From the NCBI GenBank assembly GCA_017686895.1, contig GCA_017686895.1_4521.1: a DNA stretch of 64,000 nucleotides. One strand, given 5' to 3'. Of this stretch, positions 4,202 to 34,621 are shown piece by piece. Each line of letters opens with the position of its first letter. The first letter of the stretch is position 1. The notes under the pieces are model-generated. The model ran no database searches. It was not told the origin of the DNA and saw only the letters and a program-made list of their open reading frames with translations. Made by a program: the position numbers and the translations under genes. This stretch comes from a phage.

Positions 4202-4837
4202 ATGAAAACTACACCAATCACTATCGCTATTGACGCAATCGTAAAACAAGCTTCTTCTTTGGCTACTATGGCCAAAGTAATTAGTCAAAACCCTGCTCGT
4301 TATAATGCTATTCTAGAAACTCTTCGACGCCCTGGACTGAGTAATTATGAAAGCCGAGTAATTATTACAGGTGTTGGTAAGAACGCTAATATCGCAACTA
4401 AAGCTTCCGAGACTTTTGCTTCACTAGGTATTCCTAGCATGTATTTGAACACCGGGCATTATTCTCATGGCGACGCAGGGTTTATTGCACCTAATGATGT
4501 ATTAGTTCACATCAGTCGTTCTGGTAAGACTGAAGAAATGATAGGTGTTGCTAAACATCTTCGTATGATTCGTCCTCAGGTTAAACAGATTCTGTTACAT
4601 TGTAACCCTGACATTCCGCAAGAATACGAAGCTCTTTTTGATTATACGTTCTGTACAGGCATCGCGGTAGAGGTTGATGAGAATTCTCTGGCTCCGACCA
4701 TGTCCACTACATTGTTGTTAGCGCTTATCGATACGTTTGCTATCAACCTTTCGTCTGAACGTGGATTTACCTCTAATGACTTCCTTAAGTTCCACCCTGG
4801 TGGTGCACTAGGTGCCATGTTACGAGGCGAACAATGA
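4202..4837 (+). CDS. SIS-domain sugar-phosphate isomerase, arabinose-5-phosphate isomerase (KdsD/GutQ)-like
   Basis: SIS motifs VGKNANIATKASETF, HGDAGF, VLVHISRSGKTEE resemble KdsD-type API rather than GmhA. Confidence 0.7.
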   Translation: MKTTPITIAIDAIVKQASSLATMAKVISQNPARYNAILETLRRPGLSNYESRVIITGVGKNANIATKASETFASLGIPSMYLNTGHYSHGDAGFIAPNDVLVHISRSGKTEEMIGVAKHLRMIRPQVKQILLHCNPDIPQEYEALFDYTFCTGIAVEVDENSLAPTMSTTLLLALIDTFAINLSSERGFTSNDFLKFHPGGALGAMLRGEQ

Positions 4838-4977
4838 AAGCAATAACAATAGGACTTTTACTATTGATGCTTGTCATGACTATCTACTGGAGCTTAACGG
4901 CTCCAGTAATGATTCCGACTCTTATAATCGGATGGATTATGATTGGACTACAAACAAAGTATGAATGCTTTAACTAG
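4834..4977 (+). CDS. Small hydrophobic protein (47 aa), not in ORF track
   Basis: ATG overlaps the upstream TGA (ATGA coupling); translation MKAITIGLLLLMLVMTIYWSLTAPVMIPTLIIGWIMIGLQTKYECFN is almost entirely membrane-like. Confidence 0.35.
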   Translation: MKAITIGLLLLMLVMTIYWSLTAPVMIPTLIIGWIMIGLQTKYECFN

Positions 4978-5018
4978 AATAGTGTACAATACACCTACTT
5001 ACCAATGAGGACCACAAC

Positions 5019-6704
5019 ATGAAAAAAGCTGTTATTCTTGGTGCTGGACTGGCAACTCGTTTGTATCCAATAACGCACCATATTCCTAAGGTGCTTGTTA
5101 ACTATAAACAAGACACTATTCTGAGCAATTTGTATACAATTTATTCTGACCTTGGTGCAGATGAAATTATTGTAGTAGTTCATTCAAAATTTGTTGAAAC
5201 TGTTCGAGCTTATTGTGAGCAAGAAGGGTTCAATGTGACTATTCGTACAGTTGATGAAGCGTATGGTTCTGCTTATGCTCTTGCTAAATTATACAAAGAT
5301 TTAGATGGCCATAACGTAATTGTTAACTGGTGTGATATTATTCCTGATTTTGGTTCATGGTCTTGGAATGTTAACGCAATCTATGTTAAGGGTGATGAAT
5401 GTCGATATAATTTCGATGGTGAAAATATCACTAACGTAGGTTCAACAGGCGGTAATGTTGTAGGAATTTATCAGTTCAAAGACTGGGAATTCTATATGGG
5501 TTCTACTGATGAGGAAATTCATGAATACTGCAAAGGGCGTGATTTCGTAGAATTCCTTTACGGCAGTGCATTCAATAAATCAGAGCTTATGAATCTAATT
5601 GATTTAGGTGATATGCCTAAACTTGAAAAAGCTCATGAAGTTCGTGAACTTAATCGTAGTTTTAATGCAGTTGAAATTGGTGAAGAAACTGTAACTAAAT
5701 TCGCATTAACCGAACAGGGACGAGCTCTTCAGAAAGATGAGATTTCGTGGTATCTTAAAGTGAAATCAGATTCAGTTCCTCAGTTAGTTTCTGTTAATGA
5801 AAATAACTTTGAAATGGAACGCATTAAAGGTAAGCCAGCATTTGAATATATTAAATCCAAATCAAGTCTTGCTCGTCCACAAATTGTTGATGCAATTTTA
5901 GATGCACTGAAATTCAGCACAGACACTTATTTTGTAAGTCCTGAAACTGTTCGTCGTGATTTCACTAAAGAATTCTATACGAAAGTTATTGATCGTTGTG
6001 AAAGCATTCAACCATTGATTGATTCATTTGGTAAAATCACACATGTGAACTACACTAAGATTGGACGTCTGAAGCCAATGCTGAAACAAGCTTTAGAACA
6101 CCTTATTCGTTATCATAACCGTTCTCAGGGACAGTACTCTGTTATTCATGGTGACCCGAACTTCAGTAATACTATGATTACTGATAACGGCGAAGTCAAG
6201 TTTATCGACCCTCGTGGATATTTTGGCGAAACCAAGATTTACGGGCCAAAATTGTACGATGAAGCTAAAGTGCTTTATGCTGTTTCAGGTTATGATGAAT
6301 TCAATGCTAATCCGACCTGGGGACAGTTTACTATTGATGAAACAACTTGTAATGTGACTATTAACATCAATCCATTAATTTACAAATATGGAAAGATGAG
6401 TTCGTTTAACGAGTATCATCATTTGGCGGTGGCAATTATCTGGATTGCATTAGGTGGTTATTTCAAGAATAATCCACTTAAAGCGGTAGCCGCATATTAT
6501 AAAGGTATGGAACTTCTGACTAAGCAATTACGCAACATGGGCCGTGTACTTCAAGACGGCTCTATTAGTTATGACGTAGCAGAACCTGTAACGGCTACTC
6601 TGATTACAAAAAATCCTGGTAAATGGGTACTAACTGATAAAGAAACTGGTGTTTCCTATCGTCCAATCGGTGGCGATATCACTCATCAATGGGAACGAAT
6701 CTAA
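5019..6704 (+). CDS. Bifunctional sugar-1-phosphate nucleotidyltransferase / APH-like sugar kinase
   Basis: N-terminal ILGAGLATRL nucleotidyltransferase motif; C-terminal HGDPNFSN...IDPRG kinase motifs (aminoglycoside/choline kinase fold). Confidence 0.7.
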   Translation: MKKAVILGAGLATRLYPITHHIPKVLVNYKQDTILSNLYTIYSDLGADEIIVVVHSKFVETVRAYCEQEGFNVTIRTVDEAYGSAYALAKLYKDLDGHNVIVNWCDIIPDFGSWSWNVNAIYVKGDECRYNFDGENITNVGSTGGNVVGIYQFKDWEFYMGSTDEEIHEYCKGRDFVEFLYGSAFNKSELMNLIDLGDMPKLEKAHEVRELNRSFNAVEIGEETVTKFALTEQGRALQKDEISWYLKVKSDSVPQLVSVNENNFEMERIKGKPAFEYIKSKSSLARPQIVDAILDALKFSTDTYFVSPETVRRDFTKEFYTKVIDRCESIQPLIDSFGKITHVNYTKIGRLKPMLKQALEHLIRYHNRSQGQYSVIHGDPNFSNTMITDNGEVKFIDPRGYFGETKIYGPKLYDEAKVLYAVSGYDEFNANPTWGQFTIDETTCNVTININPLIYKYGKMSSFNEYHHLAVAIIWIALGGYFKNNPLKAVAAYYKGMELLTKQLRNMGRVLQDGSISYDVAEPVTATLITKNPGKWVLTDKETGVSYRPIGGDITHQWERI

Positions 6705-7090
6705 TGCACCGTGTAGAAAACATGCTTAATCTTTGTTTTGATGTCGATGATTGTATAACAGAGTGGAATAACAATCGTGATTACGTGAACTTCAAACCAG
6801 ACGTCGAAATGGTGTCTGCCATTAATGCCCTGTATGATGCAGGGCATACCATAACGCTTTACACTGCTCGTGGTATGAAGTCAGTAGGTCCTGGTCGTAT
6901 AGCAATTGACATTCTCCCAAGTCTGATTCAGAACTTGGCAAACATTGGCTTGAAGTACCATAATTTGCTAACACATAAACCAGTATATGATTGGATTATC
7001 GACGACAAAGCTATGCGTCCTGACGAATTCAAAGCTCTTATGAATAAAGGCGAATTCGAAACATTTAAATCATATAAACCGAATCTATAA
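6704..7090 (+). CDS. HAD-superfamily phosphatase-like protein
   Basis: FDVDDCIT (DxD motif I), LYTAR, K...DWIIDDK; TAATG overlap with upstream gene; track start 6689 is an alternative. Confidence 0.5.
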   Translation: MHRVENMLNLCFDVDDCITEWNNNRDYVNFKPDVEMVSAINALYDAGHTITLYTARGMKSVGPGRIAIDILPSLIQNLANIGLKYHNLLTHKPVYDWIIDDKAMRPDEFKALMNKGEFETFKSYKPNL

Positions 7091-7136
7091 TAATTTAAGT
7101 AAGACCTGCAAAAACCATCGCATCAATTAACGCGAG

Positions 7137-8306
7137 ATGCAAAAAATGAATACTTTTAAAATCGGAACGAATTTTGATTTAGCTCTTCTTGATAAAATCG
7201 TAGAGCTCAATAAAACCTATCCTAATAGCTTGATAAACGAAGTATATGGCTCTACAAGAGAAATGGCTTTTGTAGCAGCCAGACCTGATTTTAGGCTTCC
7301 TGACGTTGACAAAAAGATGTTAGAAGATTACGTTAAACGTTGTAACGAATTAGGTATTTGCTTTAACTATACACTCAACACGATAAATCCTGGTTCAAAA
7401 AGAGAACTAGTTGAGTGGAAGAAGAAAGCTATTCAGGATTATGTTCAGTATCTTTGGTCAATAGGCGTATGGCGTATTACTATCGCTAACCCTGTTGTTA
7501 TGGAAATTGTTCGTGAAGTCAATAAAGATATTGAGATTGAAGTTTCAACAATTCTACATGTCGATGCGGTAACTCAAATCAAATACTTACATGACCAATA
7601 TAACATCAAAAAGGTCTGTTGCGGAATTCATAAGAACCGTTCAGTTTCTTTCCTGAAGCGTGCAGCAGAGTTTTGCAATAAGAACAATATAATATTTGAA
7701 GTTCTTGTAAATGAGTTCTGTTCTAATGCTGGTAAAGGGTATACAACACATTGTAGTTATCGTGACTCTTGCTATATTTTCCATAGTACTGATGTTACAG
7801 CTGATGATGCTAAATCCTTAAATGGATATCCAATGCAACACTGCATTAAAGCTCGTGATACAGACCCATTTAACTGGTTGAGAACTCGTTTTGTTCGTCC
7901 TCAAGATTTGAAACTTTATAATGATATTGGTATCACTCAATTCAAAGTTTCAGGACGTACAGGTAGCACAGACTACATTTTGAAAGTTCTTGAAGCATAC
8001 GCTTCTGAAAAGTTTGAAGGTAATTTGTTAGAACTGTGGAAGCCTTTAGAGACTATTTTCACTCTTGAAAATGAGACTGAGTTTTCACATACAGTAAATA
8101 TTGAAACCTCTTTGTTAGATGGCTTTTTAGAAAAAAGGTGGTTCAGACATCCAGATTTTGATTGTGCTAATGAAATCTGTGGGTCAACGTGTACATATTG
8201 TGAAAGGTATTATAAACGTCAATTATCTAAAAACGGGTTAGCAGAAAACTCCATATCTATTATTGATATAACTAACTCTGATGACGCTTTGAGGTACCCG
8301 GAATGA
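7137..8306 (+). CDS. Cys-rich protein of unknown function; weak resemblance to peptidase U32-family TIM-barrel proteins
   Basis: 389-aa ORF in the cassette; motifs NEVYGS, FKVSGRTGSTDY and clustered Cys (CxxxxGxGxxxxC, CANEICGSTCTYC); family assignment from memory only. Confidence 0.5.
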   Translation: MQKMNTFKIGTNFDLALLDKIVELNKTYPNSLINEVYGSTREMAFVAARPDFRLPDVDKKMLEDYVKRCNELGICFNYTLNTINPGSKRELVEWKKKAIQDYVQYLWSIGVWRITIANPVVMEIVREVNKDIEIEVSTILHVDAVTQIKYLHDQYNIKKVCCGIHKNRSVSFLKRAAEFCNKNNIIFEVLVNEFCSNAGKGYTTHCSYRDSCYIFHSTDVTADDAKSLNGYPMQHCIKARDTDPFNWLRTRFVRPQDLKLYNDIGITQFKVSGRTGSTDYILKVLEAYASEKFEGNLLELWKPLETIFTLENETEFSHTVNIETSLLDGFLEKRWFRHPDFDCANEICGSTCTYCERYYKRQLSKNGLAENSISIIDITNSDDALRYPE

Positions 8307-8542
8307 TTTCTAGAAAAAGTTTTAATTATAAACTTAACGAAGAGATTTTGACTATGAAACTGAACACTAACGAACAAATTCTTAAAAAGGCCCTTATGGG
8401 CCTGTTTGAAACCAAAGCGGCTAAAGTGATTAAAGAACCTGTTCAATTGGAATACTACACTGATGCATTCCTTCATAGTGTTCTTGGAAGTATAGATTCT
8501 GAAGCTTTACGTTATATCAACATTGTCAAGAAATTCAAATAA
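8303..8542 (+). CDS. Hypothetical protein
   Basis: 79-aa ORF, ATGA overlap with upstream gene. Confidence 0.45.
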   Translation: MISRKSFNYKLNEEILTMKLNTNEQILKKALMGLFETKAAKVIKEPVQLEYYTDAFLHSVLGSIDSEALRYINIVKKFK

Positions 8543-8565
8543 GCTTTATGAATTGAGTATATAAT
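8541..8565 (+). promoter_or_regulatory. Candidate middle promoter (MotA-box-like AAGCTTTAT plus TATAAT)
   Basis: MotA-like box about 12 bp upstream of TATAAT (8560-8565), 20 nt before ATG 8585. Confidence 0.3.
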
Positions 8566-8584
8566 AAATTGTATTGAGGTAAAT

Positions 8585-9301
8585 ATGGGAAAACATAACA
8601 CAATGAAATATATCAAAGCCGCAGATTTTCAAACCGCATTTAAAGCAGTCAATCGTGAAATTTTAGAAAACCCCGAATTCGTAACTGATTCTCGTATTGG
8701 ACGTTGTAATGAAATTGGGTCTATGACAGTAGTTGTTGACACTCCATCATCATTCAAAATGACCGACCCACGTATTAACCGCATCTCTTATGAATATGCC
8801 GAAGACTTCTGGAAGTTTATGATTTCTGGTGGTACCAACGCAGAAGAAGCGTTTAAGGCATATCCTAATGTCGCTAAATTTATTTCTAAACCAAAATCAG
8901 ATGTTTTGCCGGCGAACTTCAACACTTTCTATGGTCCTCGCATTGCGGCCCAATTACCAACTCTTCTAAAAGAACTTAAAGAAAAACCTAACTCTCGAAG
9001 AGTTGTGTTCCAAATTCTAGAAAGTTCTGATCAGGCTTTGCTTGATTCGGACGAAACACTTGAATATCCATGTACTGACTCAGTAACTTATTATATTCGT
9101 GATGGTAAGCTTTATACCCACTGTCATATGCGTTCTCAGAACTGTGCTGTTGTTATGCAGTTGGATTTTTATCTCCAAGGAAAATTACTTCATTATATCG
9201 CTAACGAATGCGGTGTAGAAGTTGGTGATTATACTCATACCATGGTAAGTGCCCATGTGTTTGAACGTGATTTTGATTATGTTAAAGGATTCCTTGACTA
9301 A
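8585..9301 (+). CDS. 42: Thymidylate-synthase-fold deoxycytidylate hydroxymethylase-like enzyme (gene 42 position)
   Basis: TS-fold motifs NSRRVVFQI, YPCTDSVTYYIRDG (catalytic Cys), Asp at the pyrimidine-specificity position (QLDFY) as in dCMP hydroxymethylase; more divergent from recalled T4 gp42 than neighbouring core genes. Confidence 0.6.
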   Translation: MGKHNTMKYIKAADFQTAFKAVNREILENPEFVTDSRIGRCNEIGSMTVVVDTPSSFKMTDPRINRISYEYAEDFWKFMISGGTNAEEAFKAYPNVAKFISKPKSDVLPANFNTFYGPRIAAQLPTLLKELKEKPNSRRVVFQILESSDQALLDSDETLEYPCTDSVTYYIRDGKLYTHCHMRSQNCAVVMQLDFYLQGKLLHYIANECGVEVGDYTHTMVSAHVFERDFDYVKGFLD

Positions 9302-10200
9302 TGGCTATTTTCCGCGTACCAATCTTGAGTATGCGGTCTTATGAAACTGGACAGTATGCTATCCTTAAGGATGGCAACTTCCAACTTCATTTGCACCGTG
9401 CTAATCCAGGTGATGTGATTACATATCCACGTAATGCATCTGATATTAAAGAATGCGAACGTCTTTTCCCAGAATTTAAGTTTGTTCCATTATGGTATAA
9501 AGATAACGCGTATAACACTCGTAAATATTTCTGGTCTGAAAATGAATTTGTGGTTGATTCATTAATTGCTTATTATGATTGTGATTTTCTAATCACAGAT
9601 ATCACCGGATATGACGGCGCTTTTGATGTGGAATTCAATTTCAATATCACTGCAGACCCTAATAAACCACGTTTTTATATTGACGAATTCTTAAAAACTG
9701 ATATGTTGTCGGTTAATCGTTCACTTCAAACTACTGTGTTGAATGAACGTCAAAAAGAAGTGCTGGTTAACGCAGGTGCAGATGGTAATAAGATTATCGT
9801 AACGCAGAAAGTTATACGTCCTTCCATCATGCAGCGTCTTGTAGGTGATTTGGCTCCTATTCATCTAGATGGTATTTTTCATCCATTTCGAATTAGTGAC
9901 CCGTGCTATCGTTTTGAACAAGTGGTTGAATGTGCAATTCAATTAGGCCAACCGCTTTATATAACCGATCCAAATAATAGCTTCGACAGAAATAAGTATC
10001 CTGAAGAAGCATTGATTCGAATTTTTAAACCAACTAAAACTGAGTACTATCAAATTCTTAAAGGACGTCCGAAGATTCAATATTTCGAAAATCCTGAAGA
10101 AGTATTCCATCCAGGTCTTGGTGAGTTCATCTACTTTAATGCTTTAATTTCTTCGCCGTATAATATACCTAAATATGAAGATGTCGTAATCGAGGAATAA
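9301..10200 (+). CDS. Hypothetical protein (occupies the T4 beta-glucosyltransferase position)
   Basis: 299-aa ORF, TAATG coupled to the hydroxymethylase gene; no recognisable motif. Confidence 0.55.
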   Translation: MAIFRVPILSMRSYETGQYAILKDGNFQLHLHRANPGDVITYPRNASDIKECERLFPEFKFVPLWYKDNAYNTRKYFWSENEFVVDSLIAYYDCDFLITDITGYDGAFDVEFNFNITADPNKPRFYIDEFLKTDMLSVNRSLQTTVLNERQKEVLVNAGADGNKIIVTQKVIRPSIMQRLVGDLAPIHLDGIFHPFRISDPCYRFEQVVECAIQLGQPLYITDPNNSFDRNKYPEEALIRIFKPTKTEYYQILKGRPKIQYFENPEEVFHPGLGEFIYFNALISSPYNIPKYEDVVIEE

Positions 10201-10201
10201 A

Positions 10202-10750
10202 ATGGCTAAAATTATTTTAGTAGATGGCCCGGATAATGCTGGTAAAACAACTTTCATTAATGACATAATGGAAATTAGTGAAAGATATGTAAAGATTGAT
10301 TTCCCTAAACGAACAGTTGATGGACGTTTCGATGTTAAGTCTCGAAATGAAGTTGGCTGTTTCGAAACTATGTTGAATTATTTAGACCCTACTAAGATTT
10401 ATCTATTAGACCGTGGATATATTAGTAACTGGGTTTATGGACGTATTCGACAAGATGCGGACTCGGTTCTTGACGTTTATGAACAGGATTATGTTCGTCT
10501 TTGCCAAAACCATGATGTGTTCACAATTATTTTAACACGTAACGAAATGACTGAAAGTTTTGAAGACGACCTTATTACTTTGTCTTCATTCGGTTTTAAT
10601 ACAGTAATTTCACATTTTGAAGAGTTTGCAATTCATAACGAAATCCAAACGTATCAATTACTTAATCATGATGGTGCTAACAAAGTTATAGGATTTAATG
10701 CAAGCGAACGTAATAATTTGATTACAGAAATCATCAAATGGGCTCGTTAA
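10202..10750 (+). CDS. P-loop NTPase, nucleotide/nucleoside kinase-like
   Basis: Walker A GPDNAGKTT near N-terminus; 182 aa. Confidence 0.55.
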   Translation: MAKIILVDGPDNAGKTTFINDIMEISERYVKIDFPKRTVDGRFDVKSRNEVGCFETMLNYLDPTKIYLLDRGYISNWVYGRIRQDADSVLDVYEQDYVRLCQNHDVFTIILTRNEMTESFEDDLITLSSFGFNTVISHFEEFAIHNEIQTYQLLNHDGANKVIGFNASERNNLITEIIKWAR

Positions 10751-29141: not shown

Positions 29142-30959
29142 ATGATTAAAAACGAAATTAAGGTATTGTCAGATGTAGAACATATTAAGAAACGTAGTGG
29201 TATGTATATTGGTTCTTCGGCTAAAGAAGCACATGAGCGTTTTTTGTTTGGTAAATATCAACAAGTTGAATATGTTCCTGGTCTGGTTAAATTAATCGAT
29301 GAGATTATTGACAACTCGGTTGATGAAGCTATTCGTACATCATTTAAGTTTGCAAATAAAATTGATGTGCAAATTAAAAATAATCAAGTTTCGGTGGAAG
29401 ATAACGGACGTGGTATTCCTCAAGGTTTAGTTACTGACCAAACAGGTGAACAAATTCCTGGGCCTGTAGCAGCCTGGACTATTCCAAAGGCCGGTGGTAA
29501 CTTTGGTGATGATTCTGAACGCAAGACTGGTGGTATGAACGGCGTCGGGAGTAGTTTAACTAATATCTTCTCTACGTTGTTTACAGGCATCACGTCAGAT
29601 GGCGAAAATGAAATCACTGTTAACTGTTCAAACGGAATGGAAAACAAATCATGGTCTTCTAAGAAATCTAAAGGTAAAGGCACTAAAGTAATCTTCACTC
29701 CTGATTTCACTTCATTTGAAGAGAATAATTTATCTCAAATTTATTTAGATATTACTTTAGACCGACTTCAAACATTGGCAGTTGTTTATCCTGATATCAA
29801 GTTCACATTTAATGGTAAAAAGGTTGATGGTAATTTTAAACGATTTGCTAAACAATTTGGTGAAGATAACATCATTCAAGAAAATGATAAAGTCTCTATA
29901 GCATTCACAACATCACCAGATGGCTTCCGTCATTTAACTTATGTGAATAACATCCATACTAAAAATGGTGGTCATCATGTTGAATGTGTAATGGATGATA
30001 TTTGCGAACATCTTTTACCGGGTATTAAAAAGAAATATAAGGGTATTGAAGTCACTAAAGCTCGTGTTAAAGAATGCCTCACAATGTTGATGTTTATTAG
30101 AGACATGAGCAATATGCGTTTTGATTCTCAGACTAAAGAACGTTTAACGTCAACGTATGGTGATATTCGTAATCATATCCAATTAGATGCTAAGAAAATT
30201 GCTCAGGCACTTCTTAAAAACGAAGCCTTGATTATGCCTATTGTTGAAGCAGCATTAGCTCGTAAATTGGCAGCAGAAAAGGCTGCAGAAACTAAAGCAG
30301 CTAAAAAGGCAACTAAAGCTAAGGTTCATAAGCATATTAAAGCTAACCGATGTGGTAAAGATGCAGATACGACATTGTTTTTAACAGAAGGTGATTCGGC
30401 AATTGGTTATCTCATTGATGTTCGTGACCGTGAACTACACGGTGGATTCCCATTACGTGGTAAGGTGATGAATAGCTGGGGTATGTCATATGCTGATATG
30501 ATGAAGAACAAAGAGCTCTTTGATATCTGTGCTATCACAGGTCTTATTCTTGGTGAAAAGGCAGAGAATACGAACTATCGTAATATTGCAATTATGACTG
30601 ATGCAGATCACGACGGTCTTGGAAGTATCTATCCGGCTTTGCTTGCTTTCTTTAGTAATTGGCCTGAATTGTTTGAACAAGGACGTATTCGCTTTGTTAA
30701 AACGCCTGTAATTATTGCACAAATTGGCAAAACTCAAAAATGGTTTTATACTGTAGCTGAGTATGAAGAAGTTAAAGATACACTGCCTAAGCATAGTATT
30801 CGATACATCAAGGGATTAGGCTCCCTTGAAAAGTCAGAATATCGTGAAATGATTCAGAACCCTGTGTACGACGTAGTTAAACTTCCTGAAAATTGGAAAG
30901 AACTCTTTGAAATGTTGATGGGTGATGATTCAGAACTTCGTAAAGAATGGATGTCCTAA
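29142..30959 (+). CDS. 39: DNA topoisomerase II large subunit gp39 (GyrB-like, single unsplit ORF)
   Basis: 605 aa with GHKL ATPase (VEDNGRGIP) and Toprim (LTEGDSA, DADHDG) in one frame; T4 splits this into 39 and 60. Confidence 0.92.
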   Translation: MIKNEIKVLSDVEHIKKRSGMYIGSSAKEAHERFLFGKYQQVEYVPGLVKLIDEIIDNSVDEAIRTSFKFANKIDVQIKNNQVSVEDNGRGIPQGLVTDQTGEQIPGPVAAWTIPKAGGNFGDDSERKTGGMNGVGSSLTNIFSTLFTGITSDGENEITVNCSNGMENKSWSSKKSKGKGTKVIFTPDFTSFEENNLSQIYLDITLDRLQTLAVVYPDIKFTFNGKKVDGNFKRFAKQFGEDNIIQENDKVSIAFTTSPDGFRHLTYVNNIHTKNGGHHVECVMDDICEHLLPGIKKKYKGIEVTKARVKECLTMLMFIRDMSNMRFDSQTKERLTSTYGDIRNHIQLDAKKIAQALLKNEALIMPIVEAALARKLAAEKAAETKAAKKATKAKVHKHIKANRCGKDADTTLFLTEGDSAIGYLIDVRDRELHGGFPLRGKVMNSWGMSYADMMKNKELFDICAITGLILGEKAENTNYRNIAIMTDADHDGLGSIYPALLAFFSNWPELFEQGRIRFVKTPVIIAQIGKTQKWFYTVAEYEEVKDTLPKHSIRYIKGLGSLEKSEYREMIQNPVYDVVKLPENWKELFEMLMGDDSELRKEWMS

Positions 30960-30975
30960 GCTCCTTCGGGAGCTT
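30958..30975 (+). other. UUCG-tetraloop hairpin (AAGCTCC-TTCG-GGAGCTT) overlapping the gene 39 stop
   Basis: 7-bp perfect stem; weak U-tract. Confidence 0.5.
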
Positions 30976-31001
30976 CATTTTAATTTTAATAAGGCTTAAT
31001 T

Positions 31002-32102
31002 ATGAAAGTTATGTTTATCCCATCTCGTGCAGTCCCATTTAATCCTGACCGTGTACAAGGTGGTCTTGAAGCAGTACATTTAAATGTGTTGAAATATCTT
31101 GTGTCCATCGGTGCTGATATTGATTATATCGGCTTTGATAATGACGTGTTTGGTGATTGGAAAGTTACACACCATCCTGTCGGCCATCTGACTAAATTCA
31201 GTCTAGGTATGAGTTATACTATGGCTCGTAAGATTGTTGAACTAGCCGGCATCCATGAATACGATTTTGTTGTTACTATGGAACCGACTAAACTAACCGT
31301 TCAGGCAATTAAAGACGCAGGTCTCTCTAAAGTTCATAAGAATTTTATGGCAACACCATTTGAACCGGTATCTCGTGGCATTGTTCAAATTTGGGACCAG
31401 ACTATTCAAATTCATAAGAATGGTGGTAAGAGTTATGCTCCTACTAAAGCCTTCCGTGAATTTGAACGCAAATATTGTTATATGACTTCAGGTCTGACTG
31501 ACAAAATTGATTATGATTATTGGCGAGCAAATCCGTTGTTTGAAGCCGAAGATTATCCGGTTATTTGTTTGAATGAGAAACCTGAAGTTCTTCCGGCGAC
31601 TGATCTGATTATTAGTGCACAACGTTATGACACTAAAATGCGTCGTACTGATGTTGCTCTTGAAGCGATTAAAGCACTAGGCGAAAATGGTGTAGGATAC
31701 TGTCCTAGTAAATGGGCGCCACCGGCTAAGTATCCTGTTATTATTGATGCTCCACATAGTGAAATCATGGAACGTCTTAAAACAGCTAAAGCACTTATCA
31801 ATACGTGTCCTGACACAGGTACGGTAGAGAATAGTTCTATTGAAGCCATCTCTAAAGGTGTCCCTGTAATCCAGTTAGTTTTTAAGGATTATCCTCATGC
31901 GACATTTGAATACGACCCAGATACTGTGCGTGTAGAAATTGATTCCTCTACTCCTAAGAAAGAAGTAGTTGCGCTTTACACAAAAGCTGTATTAGAATTC
32001 ACTGACACATACGAAGCTCGAGTTAAACGTGCTGAAGCCGTATGGAAGAAGTATAACCGAGATGCAGTTGTTGCGATGTGGGATAAAATCTTCACAGCGT
32101 AA
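31002..32102 (+). CDS. GT-B-type glycosyltransferase, candidate hmC-DNA arabinosyltransferase
   Basis: 366 aa; N-terminal DRVQGGLEAVHL and C-terminal TGTVENSSIEAISKGVPVI (E-x7-E-like); lies between 39 and rIIA. Confidence 0.7.
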   Translation: MKVMFIPSRAVPFNPDRVQGGLEAVHLNVLKYLVSIGADIDYIGFDNDVFGDWKVTHHPVGHLTKFSLGMSYTMARKIVELAGIHEYDFVVTMEPTKLTVQAIKDAGLSKVHKNFMATPFEPVSRGIVQIWDQTIQIHKNGGKSYAPTKAFREFERKYCYMTSGLTDKIDYDYWRANPLFEAEDYPVICLNEKPEVLPATDLIISAQRYDTKMRRTDVALEAIKALGENGVGYCPSKWAPPAKYPVIIDAPHSEIMERLKTAKALINTCPDTGTVENSSIEAISKGVPVIQLVFKDYPHATFEYDPDTVRVEIDSSTPKKEVVALYTKAVLEFTDTYEARVKRAEAVWKKYNRDAVVAMWDKIFTA

Positions 32103-32194
32103 ATCCTGAATAGCCTGAGGCACTATTACACATAAGATGATAGATTATATGGTCTTTAGTAATAGTGCCCTAGGAATCTACTGAAGAGAATATT

Positions 32195-32395
32195 ATGAGA
32201 ACATATAACGTGGACTTGGAACTTTTTGATAAAGCAGTGCTCCGGGAATTCCGGCTTATCCAAAGATTTTTTGATATTGAGTCAGCAGAGTCCTTTAAAG
32301 AACGCTTTAAAGAAATTCGATATAAAATACAAACCGATACAGCTACTAAAGAAGAACTTCTTGAAGTAGCAGAAATTTTTAAACGTAACTTGTGA
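32195..32395 (+). CDS. Hypothetical protein (rIIA.1 position)
   Basis: 66-aa ORF. Confidence 0.45.
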   Translation: MRTYNVDLELFDKAVLREFRLIQRFFDIESAESFKERFKEIRYKIQTDTATKEELLEVAEIFKRNL

Positions 32396-32407: not shown

Positions 32408-34621
32408 ATGATTATTGAAACGGCTAAAGAAACGATTATTGGTTCAGGCGGTAAGAGCACAGCATTTACTATTCAAGGCAATAGCAAAGTTTATAAGATT
32501 TTGTCTAATGACCTTTATACAAACAAAGAATTGGCTTGTGTACGTGAATTAATTACAAACTGTATCGATGGACAAATTCTTAACGGTTGCACTGATAAGT
32601 TTATTATTCAGGCTCCAGGTCGGTTAGACCCGCGCTTTGTAGTTCGAGACTTTGGTCCTGGTATGAGCGATTTCACCATTAGAGGTAATGACGAAGAGCC
32701 AGGAATTTATAACTCATATTTTGCTTCAACTAAAACATCGAGTAACGATTTCATCGGTGGATTCGGACTCGGCTCTAAAGCTCCGCTAGCATATACCGAT
32801 ACGTTTAACCTTACGTCTTATCACAACGGCGAAGTTCGTGGTTACGTAATCTACCAAGATGACACGGGTCCACAAATTAAGCCGACCTTTGTAGATAAGA
32901 TGGGTCCTGATGACCGTACTGGTGTAGAAGTAGTTGTACCGGTTAACCCGGAAGATTTTGAAAAGTTCGCATCCGAAATTGCATATGTTATGCGTCCTCT
33001 AGGTGATATTGCAGAAGTTCGTGGTGTTAAAGATATTAAATACTTCCCTGAATTTGACGATGTATATTTGGCCAAGGAAGCTCCATGGGGTGAACGCGGT
33101 AATATCATGGCTGTTTATGGCGGTATTGTATATCCAATCGGAAGTGTTATTAAAGAACAAACATGGATGATGACTCGATGCACTACAGCTTATATTAAAT
33201 TCCCTATGGGTGAACTAGACGTAGCTCCGTCTCGTGAAGCATTGTCATTTGATAAACGTACAGTAGCAAATATCCATAAACGCGTTGCAGAAATCGATGC
33301 TAAATTGTTCGCTGAAGATTCTAAGAAATGGATTGATTGTAAATACCCGCGTCATGTGTTCCGTGAAATTGATTCTCTTGGCTATACCGCTCGTAAATAC
33401 ATGGAAAAGGCCGGGTCTAATATTGAATCGCTGAAATACTCCAAAGAACAACTAACTTATTCTGAGTTGTACAAACGTTTTAAAATGGGGCCTGAGTGGT
33501 GTAATCTTGGCGTAGTATACGATATCGTTGAATCCCCTCGTCTTCGTCGTATTCGTGAAAGTGGTAGCTCAACGGCAACCATTTCAATTAACAGTCTGAT
33601 TGGCATTAACATTAAAAATGTTGAAATTGTTATTGACGACGTTAAGGGACGCGTTCCATTAATGCGAGCTCTTAATTCAATTGAAATGTCTAAAGACGAG
33701 GTTAAATTAACTGGTAAAGTTCCACGCGGTTTTGGTAAAAGTGTACTATTCGTTGACCCTACAGACGAAGATGCAATGAAACTTCTGGAACGCCTTAAAG
33801 TTATCTTTGATGGCGACAATATTAACATGTACAAGACTTCAGAGCTTTTACAAATCGTTAAGCCATGGATTGAAGTCAGGAAACGGACTAATGAGCCTCG
33901 TCCTAAATCGCCAAGTGCTCATCGATTCTTTAAGAATGAAAATGATGTTTGGGTATCAGAAGACCTCTTTATTCCGGCAAGTGAAGCAGATGAAATCCAA
34001 GGTTATGCTATAGTTCGTAATCGTTCTAATGCTGAATGTCTTGACGCAGATAAAGGTTGGTTGAACTATGACTCCAATTTCTTGACCCGTATTGCTGATT
34101 TGTCAGGTATTAAAGAGTTCACTGTAGTTCGTCCGCAGATTGCTAAGAAAGTTCGTAAACTTGGTGAAGTAGAATGCTTGTTCGAAAAATCAATTAATGA
34201 CTATATTACGCTAATCGATAAAGTGGATTATGATGAGTATGTATCACCAAGTCGTAGAGCACAGCCTTATTTGAATCATATTACTCGTAATGAAGAGCTT
34301 AACTTCCTTAGTAAGTATTTTAGCTCTAAGAACAAAGAAATCAGTAAAGACTTTGCAAAACTCTCAACAGTAAATAATCGTTGGGGATGGAATCGATTCG
34401 CAGGTGCTACTAATACAGACCTGAATAAGAAGTTAGAATTGTGTGCTAAAATTTTCGATAAGCTTAAAGATAATGCTTACGATAATGATGATAAAATGGT
34501 TATTGAATTCGAAACCAATTATCATATTGTGTCAGACTACATGGGACGACGTGGTACTCTTTCTAAAGAACAAGTCGCTCAAATCGTTAAATTCATGAAG
34601 GCTGTGGAAGCAGCCAAATAA
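32408..34621 (+). CDS. rIIA: rIIA protein
   Basis: 737 aa; extensive identity to recalled T4 rIIA (ELITN.ID, GRLDPRFV.RDFGPGMSDF, NDFIGGFGLGSK). Confidence 0.95.
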   Translation: MIIETAKETIIGSGGKSTAFTIQGNSKVYKILSNDLYTNKELACVRELITNCIDGQILNGCTDKFIIQAPGRLDPRFVVRDFGPGMSDFTIRGNDEEPGIYNSYFASTKTSSNDFIGGFGLGSKAPLAYTDTFNLTSYHNGEVRGYVIYQDDTGPQIKPTFVDKMGPDDRTGVEVVVPVNPEDFEKFASEIAYVMRPLGDIAEVRGVKDIKYFPEFDDVYLAKEAPWGERGNIMAVYGGIVYPIGSVIKEQTWMMTRCTTAYIKFPMGELDVAPSREALSFDKRTVANIHKRVAEIDAKLFAEDSKKWIDCKYPRHVFREIDSLGYTARKYMEKAGSNIESLKYSKEQLTYSELYKRFKMGPEWCNLGVVYDIVESPRLRRIRESGSSTATISINSLIGINIKNVEIVIDDVKGRVPLMRALNSIEMSKDEVKLTGKVPRGFGKSVLFVDPTDEDAMKLLERLKVIFDGDNINMYKTSELLQIVKPWIEVRKRTNEPRPKSPSAHRFFKNENDVWVSEDLFIPASEADEIQGYAIVRNRSNAECLDADKGWLNYDSNFLTRIADLSGIKEFTVVRPQIAKKVRKLGEVECLFEKSINDYITLIDKVDYDEYVSPSRRAQPYLNHITRNEELNFLSKYFSSKNKEISKDFAKLSTVNNRWGWNRFAGATNTDLNKKLELCAKIFDKLKDNAYDNDDKMVIEFETNYHIVSDYMGRRGTLSKEQVAQIVKFMKAVEAAK

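Follow-up and report, generated by a model that had tools for sequence, protein, structure and literature searches.

An ORF003c-type GT-B glycosyltransferase gene between gene 39 and rIIA of a Mosigvirus genome encodes a probable second-step DNA arabinosyltransferase

The 366-aa protein encoded between gene 39 and rIIA of a Mosigvirus genome is probably a UDP-arabinofuranose:alpha-Araf-5hoC-DNA beta-1,3-arabinofuranosyltransferase, which would act at the second step of DNA arabinosylation, after a smaller GT-B enzyme encoded in the arabinose-donor cassette. The acceptor, the 1->3 linkage and inactivity on the bare base are predicted features of this assignment, and membership of the gene in the DNA-arabinosylation system of the phage is supported. 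Genes of this type have been described before, with both fold and probable role: a transferase function was proposed in 2018, a structure followed in 2025, and reassignment of the role came in 2025-2026. The window, by which we mean the whole stretch of 64,000 nucleotides that was analysed, is a Mosigvirus (RB69-like) genome with DNA 98-99% identical to many isolates.

Gene location and flanking elements

The features of the 366-aa ORF and its borders are as follows.

30958..30975, plus strand: 7-bp hairpin with a UUCG loop, just 3' of the gene 39 stop and followed by a T-rich run (terminator-like scan and fold)
30991..30994, plus strand: Shine-Dalgarno sequence AAGG, 7 nt 5' of the ORF ATG (sequence read directly)
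31002..32102, plus strand: 366-aa GT-B glycosyltransferase, orthologue of RB69 ORF003c/gp3, proposed second (beta-1,3) DNA arabinofuranosyltransferase
31815..31871, plus strand: motif TGTVENSSIEAISKGVPVI, aa 272-290, in the part of the GT-B C-terminal domain that binds the nucleotide sugar
32114..32174, plus strand: long imperfect hairpin with the 11-bp core GGCACTATTAC/GTAATAGTGCC, between the 366-aa ORF stop and rIIA.1

A first-pass annotation of this DNA had placed the 366-aa ORF at 31002..32102, which is exact, and had quoted TGTVENSSIEAISKGVPVI as a C-terminal signature; the motif is present, at aa 272-290. The ORF is complete on the plus strand, with an ATG start, 366 codons and a TAA stop, and its base composition is ordinary. 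Its 5' neighbour is a fused gene 39/60 topoisomerase subunit of 605 aa (29142..30959), and on the 3' side it is followed by rIIA.1 (32195..32395), rIIA (32408..34621) and then rIIB. In T4 the interval between gene 39 and rIIA contains genes 60, 60.1 and mobA, in agreement with the annotation, which had located the ORF where T4 has gene 60/mobA. The arabinose-donor cassette, which it put at a distance of about 23 kb, spans 4202..10750 and lies 20-27 kb upstream.

A separate promoter was not evident in the 42-nt spacer between gene 39 and the 366-aa ORF, and the ORF is therefore probably co-transcribed with gene 39. The hairpin at 30958..30975 may be either terminator-like or mRNA-stabilising. 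The longer hairpin at 32114..32174 folds with an energy of -28.6 kcal/mol (z -4.4; none of 200 shuffles was equally stable) and is kept in RB69 and JK45, with no T-run behind it. An Rfam scan of the 366-aa ORF region, including this hairpin, gave no matches.

Family identity and structure

The 366-aa protein is identical at 362 of 366 positions to RB69 ORF003c (gp3, NP_861693.1), which is of equal length and occupies the same genome site, between gene 39 and rIIA.1. It is also approximately 99% identical to the protein in PDB entries 9IQZ ('phage HY126 glycosyltransferase') and 9IR0 (with UDP), both released on 2025-07-16, and the HY126 genome in the phage collection carries an ORF003c-type gene 98.4% identical to the 366-aa ORF. 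Only 4-5 substitutions separate the protein from RB69 ORF003c and from the HY126 enzyme (V49T, T56N, V230A and T327I are among those relative to RB69), and the invariant motif is untouched by them. The title of 9IR0 shows that the HY126 orthologue binds UDP; a literature search by the codes 9IQZ and 9IR0 returned unrelated chemistry only and no paper on the HY126 glycosyltransferase. The profile phrog_8302 matches residues 1-366 of 366 (E 5.9e-222), and two proteins of phage DLP3, gp77 and gp76, are 43% and 40% identical over the full length.

Structural comparison with GT-B folds, which the first-pass annotation had suggested, bore out the proposed class. Using Foldseek, more than 200 GT-B chains match at E<=1e-3, and the nearest folds after the HY126 orthologue are bacterial GT4-type enzymes such as PimA, WaaG, BshA and MshA (E 1e-9 to 1e-7, 12-14% identity). 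An AF2 model of the 366-aa protein, built from a 6-sequence alignment, was only moderate (pLDDT 65, residues 111-188 unreliable), so that the GT-B fold, which is confirmed, rests on the solved orthologue rather than on this model.

The same relationship is statistically undetectable in the sequence. A Pfam scan of the protein gave no match at E<=10, NCBIfam and PADLOC scans gave none, and an ORF003c family profile run against PDB sequences recovered only the orthologue, with no GT4 sequence at E<=10. The family does not match the CAZy GT4 or Pfam Glycos_transf_1 sequence models. Of the GT-B (GT4-like) signature claimed in the first-pass annotation, the fold thus stands and the sequence signature does not. 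The ORF003c family is also tiny, comprising 5 clusters among 5.8 billion proteins, and only 11 relatives emerged when a profile was run against 1.84 billion representatives.

Within TGTVENSSIEAISKGVPVI, the family alignment has T272, G273, T274, V275, E276, N277, S279 and E281 as invariant residues. Compared to the EX7E spacing of GT4 enzymes, E281 is invariant, Gly273 stands in the place of the first Glu, and an invariant E276 is found at -5; in the alignment of Thomas et al. 2018 (PMC6024577), E281 lies opposite E311 of T4 a-gt. The other invariants in the family alignment are a G20-G21 loop and R208/R214. By analogy with GT4 enzymes, the G20-G21 loop, R208/R214 and E276/E281 are likely donor-binding residues, and the protein would share with these enzymes a GG loop towards the N-terminus, an arginine pair (R208-x5-R214) and a helix with Glu towards the C-terminus. 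The GT4 enzymes are retaining, whereas the 366-aa protein has an assigned beta-linkage, Gly273 in place of the first Glu, and a predicted sugar-on-DNA acceptor.

The donor cassette and the acceptor base

The following cassette genes bear on the assignment.

4202..4837, plus strand: arabinose-5-phosphate isomerase, RB69 gp55 (Pfam SIS; NCBIfam KpsF/GutQ, KdsD)
5019..6704, plus strand: bifunctional sugar kinase/NDP-sugar pyrophosphorylase, RB69 gp52:53, HY126 AfhE-like (Pfam NTP_transferase and kinase-like; NCBIfam uridylyltransferase-type)
6689..7090, plus strand: HAD-type sugar phosphatase, RB69 gp51, AfhF-like (NCBIfam capsule biosynthesis phosphatase, E 4e-13)
8585..9301, plus strand: ThyA (thymidylate-synthase) homologue, 5-hydroxy-dCMP synthase (Pfam Thymidylat_synt)
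9301..10200, plus strand: compact GT-B glycosyltransferase of 299 aa, orthologous to RB69 gp46:47, DLP3 gp79 and Thanatos TH1_063
10202..10750, plus strand: nucleotide (thymidylate-like) kinase, RB69 gp45 (RB69 annotation; Lee 2026, Table 1, PMC13326640)

Passages of Lee 2026 (PMC13326640) that cite He 2026 assign the kinase/pyrophosphorylase to UDP-arabinofuranose synthesis, and give the HAD-type phosphatase its role in the cassette. The ThyA homologue of the window is identical to RB69 gp48 at 235 of 238 positions and only 25% identical to T4 gp42. RB69 gp48 was shown experimentally to make 5hodCMP, and the arabinose in RB69 and DLP3 DNA was found on 5-hydroxycytosine, not hmC (Lee et al. 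2026, PMC13326640). The RB69 nucleoside was identified there as beta-D-Araf-(1->3)-alpha-D-Araf-5hodC, to which DLP3 adds a third, beta-Araf. Because the ThyA homologue is so close to the tested RB69 protein, the acceptor base for arabinosylation in the window is 5-hydroxycytosine (5hoC) and not hmC.

The ThyA homologue and the 299-aa GT-B gene share a TAATG in which stop and start codons overlap, and the two are translationally coupled. The first-pass annotation had reported that the T4-type alpha- and beta-glucosyltransferases are absent from their usual positions. Their absence was confirmed, since a tblastn search of the whole window at E<=10 gave noise only; the statement about positions was not, as the window does not extend to the T4 a-gt slot (genes 47-55) and the 299-aa GT-B fills that of b-gt (gene 42-uvsX). 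A model of the 299-aa protein (pLDDT 94.6) has a confident GT-B fold, which is not that of a nucleotidyltransferase. We consider it a better candidate than the 366-aa ORF for the first, base-proximal arabinosyl transfer. Two results on its orthologues have been published: DLP3 gp79 did not act in vitro on DNA with 5hoC (Lee et al. 2026, PMC13326640), and Thanatos TH1_063 behaved as a UDP-xylose pyrophosphorylase (Brandt et al.).

The cassette also contains a Peptidase_U32-like gene (7137..8306), whose product Lee 2026 (PMC13326640) labels only as a 'sugar or heterocycle reductase'. The family includes UbiU/V, TrhP and RlhA, which are O2-independent, prephenate-dependent hydroxylases. The protein is 80-89% conserved across distant phages, with 13 cysteines common to the window and Thanatos proteins, and the gene is missing from all Acinetobacter-type phages. 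In Erwinia phage Virsaitis27 the gene that comes after it encodes a genuine chorismate mutase, the prephenate-making enzyme. These observations suggest that C5 of the pyrimidine may be hydroxylated by a route independent of oxygen. This lead seems more novel than the finding on the 366-aa ORF.

Distribution and copy number

Using tblastn, both transferases were searched against 50,697 phage records. The 299-aa cassette GT-B was found in 349 records, in every arabinosylating lineage found, including phages of Escherichia, Shigella, Acinetobacter, Klebsiella, Serratia, Yersinia, Proteus, Edwardsiella, Shewanella and others. The ORF003c family was found in 212 records with 268 copies, made up of 156 Mosigvirus records with one copy each and 56 Acinetobacter-type records with two. 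Across the phage collection it is confined to Mosigvirus and the Acinetobacter T4-like phages, both of which are cassette-positive, and the window itself has the cassette complete. The remaining 137 cassette-bearing records have no ORF003c homologue; the 299-aa GT-B is present and the homologue absent in Klebsiella, Dhakavirus, Serratia, Yersinia, Proteus, Edwardsiella and Shewanella phages. IMG/VR yielded 7 ORF003c-type loci, which are essentially known isolates, and contigs with divergent homologues were too short for gene context.

Three apparent irregularities were followed up and set aside. 'Tegunavirus sp. BRC001' is not an exception to the distribution, as it is an Acinetobacter-type genome with two copies, 85% identical to DLP3 gp76. 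JK45 does not carry a disrupted copy; its gene is intact, with a partial tandem duplicate behind it. Thanatos TH1_065, which occupies the slot of DLP3 gp77, is not a hidden ORF003c-type transferase, as it has no similarity to the 366-aa ORF and is Peptidase_U32-like.

The number of ORF003c copies was compared with the published sugar chains. Thanatos has the cassette and no ORF003c copy, and its DNA carries one pentose on cytosine (Brandt et al.). The DNA of RB69, NP, Bas46 and Bas47 is mono- and di-arabinosylated, and a single ORF003c copy was confirmed in RB69 and in Bas47 (= AlbertHofmann). DLP3 DNA is tri-arabinosylated (Lee et al. 2026, PMC13326640), and DLP3 has two ORF003c paralogues, located inside the cassette directly 3' of the kinase. 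Copy numbers of 0, 1 and 2 in Thanatos, Mosigvirus and Acinetobacter phages therefore track 1, 2 and 3 sugars.

Assignment of the two transfer steps

The first-pass annotation had mentioned a proposal of a transferase gene near rIIA in RB69, and this was traced to ORF003c, the 99% identical orthologue, which Thomas et al. 2018 (PMC6024577) proposed as an hmC arabinosyltransferase by HHpred and Phyre2. Lee 2026 (PMC13326640) proposed that RB69 gp46:47 is arabinosyltransferase 1 and that gp3 (ORF003c) is beta-arabinosyltransferase 2. In that study RB69 DNA gained a third arabinose in vitro when purified DLP3 gp76 and gp77 were supplied together with UDP-Araf, and none of the GTs was active by itself on 5hoC DNA; among the transferases, the activity of DLP3 gp76/77 is the only one confirmed experimentally (PMC13326640). 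The Durham-collection paper also describes two sequential transferases; the gene of one lies within the sugar cluster and that of the other in the interval from the topoisomerase gene to rIIA, exactly the positions of the 299-aa and 366-aa genes here. Bas46 lacking the arabinosyltransferase 'Aat' is viable and defence-sensitive, which would agree with a second step that the phage can do without, provided that Aat is the ORF003c-type gene.

These observations can be assembled into the following pathway. In the cassette, the ThyA homologue would convert dCMP to 5-hydroxy-dCMP, and the isomerase, kinase/pyrophosphorylase and phosphatase would provide UDP-D-arabinofuranose. The 299-aa GT-B would attach an initial alpha-Araf to 5-hydroxycytosine through the oxygen at C5. 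The 366-aa GT-B would bind UDP-Araf in its C-terminal Rossmann domain, with the E276/E281 motif, and would add the second Araf in a beta-1,3 linkage to the first sugar on the DNA. The product would be beta-D-Araf-(1->3)-alpha-D-Araf-5-hydroxy-dC, as in RB69-type virions. A sugar-on-sugar rather than a base-directed role for the 366-aa protein is supported because the copy number of the family tracks chain length and because DLP3 gp76 and gp77 extend the chain.

The principal alternative is that the 366-aa enzyme links the first arabinose directly to the modified cytosine, as Thomas 2018 had proposed and as the first-pass annotation held in calling it the best candidate for transfer of the pentose onto hmC. 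This is the original published candidate (PMC6024577), the GenBank record of Bas47 annotates its ORF003c-type gene as a 'putative hmC-arabinosyltransferase', the protein is GT-B like T4 a-gt and b-gt, and the alternative first transferase, represented by DLP3 gp79, was inactive on 5hoC DNA (PMC13326640). Against it, the base is 5hoC rather than hmC, the 137 cassette-bearing records without a homologue include Thanatos with its pentosylated cytosine, ORF003c copy number follows the extra sugars, and DLP3 gp76 and gp77 act on DNA that is already arabinosylated, lengthening an existing chain (PMC13326640). The annotation had left the 299-aa GT-B unmentioned, and its claim was not supported; we judge a first-sugar role of the 366-aa protein to be improbable.

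Slightly less probable again is a promiscuous or processive 366-aa enzyme that performs both transfers in Mosigvirus, with the 299-aa protein mainly engaged in donor synthesis. The UDP-xylose pyrophosphorylase activity measured for Thanatos TH1_063 (Brandt et al.) and the lack of transferase activity of DLP3 gp79 in vitro (PMC13326640) are in its favour, but the 299-aa protein has the GT-B fold described above, the cassette already has a dedicated NTP-transferase, an alpha and then a beta linkage would be hard for one active site, and pentosylation persists in phages that lack the 366-aa ORF. A function unrelated to DNA modification, with for example a glycan of the host envelope or a protein of the phage as acceptor, is very unlikely: the nearest folds do include the lipid/LPS glycosyltransferases PimA and WaaG, and the Mosigvirus gene is far from the cassette, but homologues occur only in cassette-carrying phages, lie inside the cassette in Acinetobacter phages, and as DLP3 paralogues act on DNA (PMC13326640).

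For the preferred assignment to the second transfer, the stereochemistry carries a further consequence. Since the RB69 disaccharide has both an alpha and a beta linkage and a single donor, UDP-Araf, would serve both steps, one of the two GT-B enzymes of the window must invert and the other must retain, yet both are GT4-like. If the donor is the alpha-anomer, the 366-aa protein would form the beta linkage with inversion, as an arabinofuranosyltransferase built on a scaffold whose closest relatives all retain, and would found a new family of sugar-on-DNA glycosyltransferases. We hold this last reading tentatively and think it somewhat unlikely; the orphan status of the sequence (11 relatives in 1.84 billion), the altered EX7E and the lack of any Pfam match fit it.

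Relationship to other DNA glycosylation systems

Beyond the orthologues in RB69 and HY126, a close known system is that of DLP3 (Lazarusvirus), whose gp76 and gp77 belong to the same family over their full length and extend an arabinose chain from UDP-Araf. DLP3 has two tandem paralogues in the cassette, both of which together are required for the third sugar, and makes a tri-arabinoside. In Mosigvirus the single copy is displaced to the junction of 39 and rIIA, and the chain ends at two sugars.

T4 a-gt (GT72, PDB 1XV5/1Y6F) and b-gt (GT63) share with the 366-aa protein a GT-B fold and, by its assignment, a UDP-sugar donor and a DNA acceptor. They differ in transferring glucose directly onto hmC and in their genome positions, and BLASTP of the 366-aa protein against T4 a-gt and b-gt detected no similarity (E>=8.8). 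A functional analogue is the beta-1,6-glucosyl-alpha-glucose transferase of T2 and T6, which likewise places a second sugar on phage DNA that is already glycosylated. This enzyme adds the second glucose to give gentiobiosyl-hmC. The comparison draws on what is established for T-even phages, and on Thomas 2018 (PMC6024577) and the Durham-collection paper. The T2/T6 transferase thus handles a hexose on an hmC-linked chain, whereas the system of the 366-aa ORF would handle a pentose on a 5hoC-linked one.

Significance

Arabinosylated 5-hydroxycytosine shields Mosigvirus DNA from restriction enzymes, the glycosylase Brig1 and some CRISPR-Cas systems, and which defences the phage escapes or sets off appears to depend on how many sugars are attached. 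Assigning each gene to its sugar is useful for phage engineering and sequencing, for the choice of therapeutic phages, and for DNA-glycosylation tools.

Sequences flanking the ORF003c orthologue

The ORF003c orthologue (the GT-B glycosyltransferase gene between gene 39 and rIIA.1) is bordered in the window by a predicted RNA structure on each side:

30958..30975 (+): 7-bp hairpin with a UUCG tetraloop, directly 3' of the gene 39 stop codon
32114..32174 (+): strong hairpin between the ORF003c orthologue stop codon and rIIA.1 (-28.6 kcal/mol, z -4.4)

The upstream hairpin is followed by a T-rich tail and is of a type common in the intercistronic regions of T4. The downstream hairpin has no T-run after it and matched no Rfam family; it is kept in both RB69 and Shigella phage JK45 (MK962757.1). 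In JK45, a tandem duplication of approximately 500 bp (L016:2594-3203, in the JK45 locus) runs from the 3' portion of the ORF003c orthologue through this hairpin into the beginning of rIIA.1, producing an extra 411-nt ORF and leaving the full-length orthologue intact. This duplication may be real or may be an artefact of assembly. Record OZ038340.1, labelled 'Tegunavirus sp. BRC001', looks like a mislabelled Acinetobacter T4-like phage, since its two ORF003c-family genes share 85% identity with the pair in Acinetobacter phage DLP3.

A second GT-B gene in the cassette

Within the 5-hydroxycytosine and UDP-arabinofuranose cassette, the slot of T4 beta-gt is filled by a further glycosyltransferase gene, which was left out of the first-pass annotation:

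9301..10200 (+): second GT-B glycosyltransferase gene, confident GT-B fold

The gene begins within the stop codon of the 5hodCMP synthase gene (TAATG), and in the RB69 reference its orthologue is broken into two ORFs, 046c/047c, by a sequencing error. UDP-xylose pyrophosphorylase activity has been reported for the orthologue from Thanatos, which is at odds with the confident GT-B fold of the window protein.

A U32-like protein and a possible second route to 5-hydroxycytosine

The cassette also encodes a protein of the Peptidase_U32 family, with counterparts in two of the compared loci:

7137..8306 (+): Peptidase_U32-family protein gene (Pfam E 7e-11; weak UbiU match)
L003:7462-8598 and L017:4992-6161 (the latter in Erwinia phage Virsaitis27): counterparts
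L017:6158-6502: chorismate mutase type II of Virsaitis27 (Pfam CM_2, 44.6 bits vs a cutoff of 27)
8303..8542 (+): 79-aa ORF (RB69 ORF049c), syntenic with the Virsaitis27 chorismate mutase

The only label given to the U32-like protein by Lee 2026 (PMC13326640) is 'sugar or heterocycle reductase'. It is 80-89% identical among Mosigvirus, Klebsiella, Proteus, Yersinia, Erwinia and Shewanella phages, and the window and Thanatos proteins have 13 conserved Cys in common, some of them in a C-terminal CX4CX3CX2C. The small chorismate mutase gene of Virsaitis27 has the U32-like gene on one side and the ThyA homologue on the other, and Klebsiella phage PWKp16 likewise carries a chorismate mutase annotation. 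Prephenate, the product of chorismate mutase, is the oxygen donor for U32 hydroxylases. The 79-aa ORF of the window had no Pfam matches and no BLASTP similarity to the Virsaitis27 enzyme.

The U32-like gene is missing from all cassette-bearing phages of Acinetobacter, a strict aerobe, and also from approximately 40 Dhakavirus-like Escherichia records. Members of the Peptidase_U32 family include the O2-independent, prephenate-dependent hydroxylases UbiU/V, TrhP (ho5U) and RlhA (ho5C), and the U32-like protein could provide an O2-independent route to 5-hydroxycytosine, as a backup for the O2/flavin-dependent ThyA homologue.
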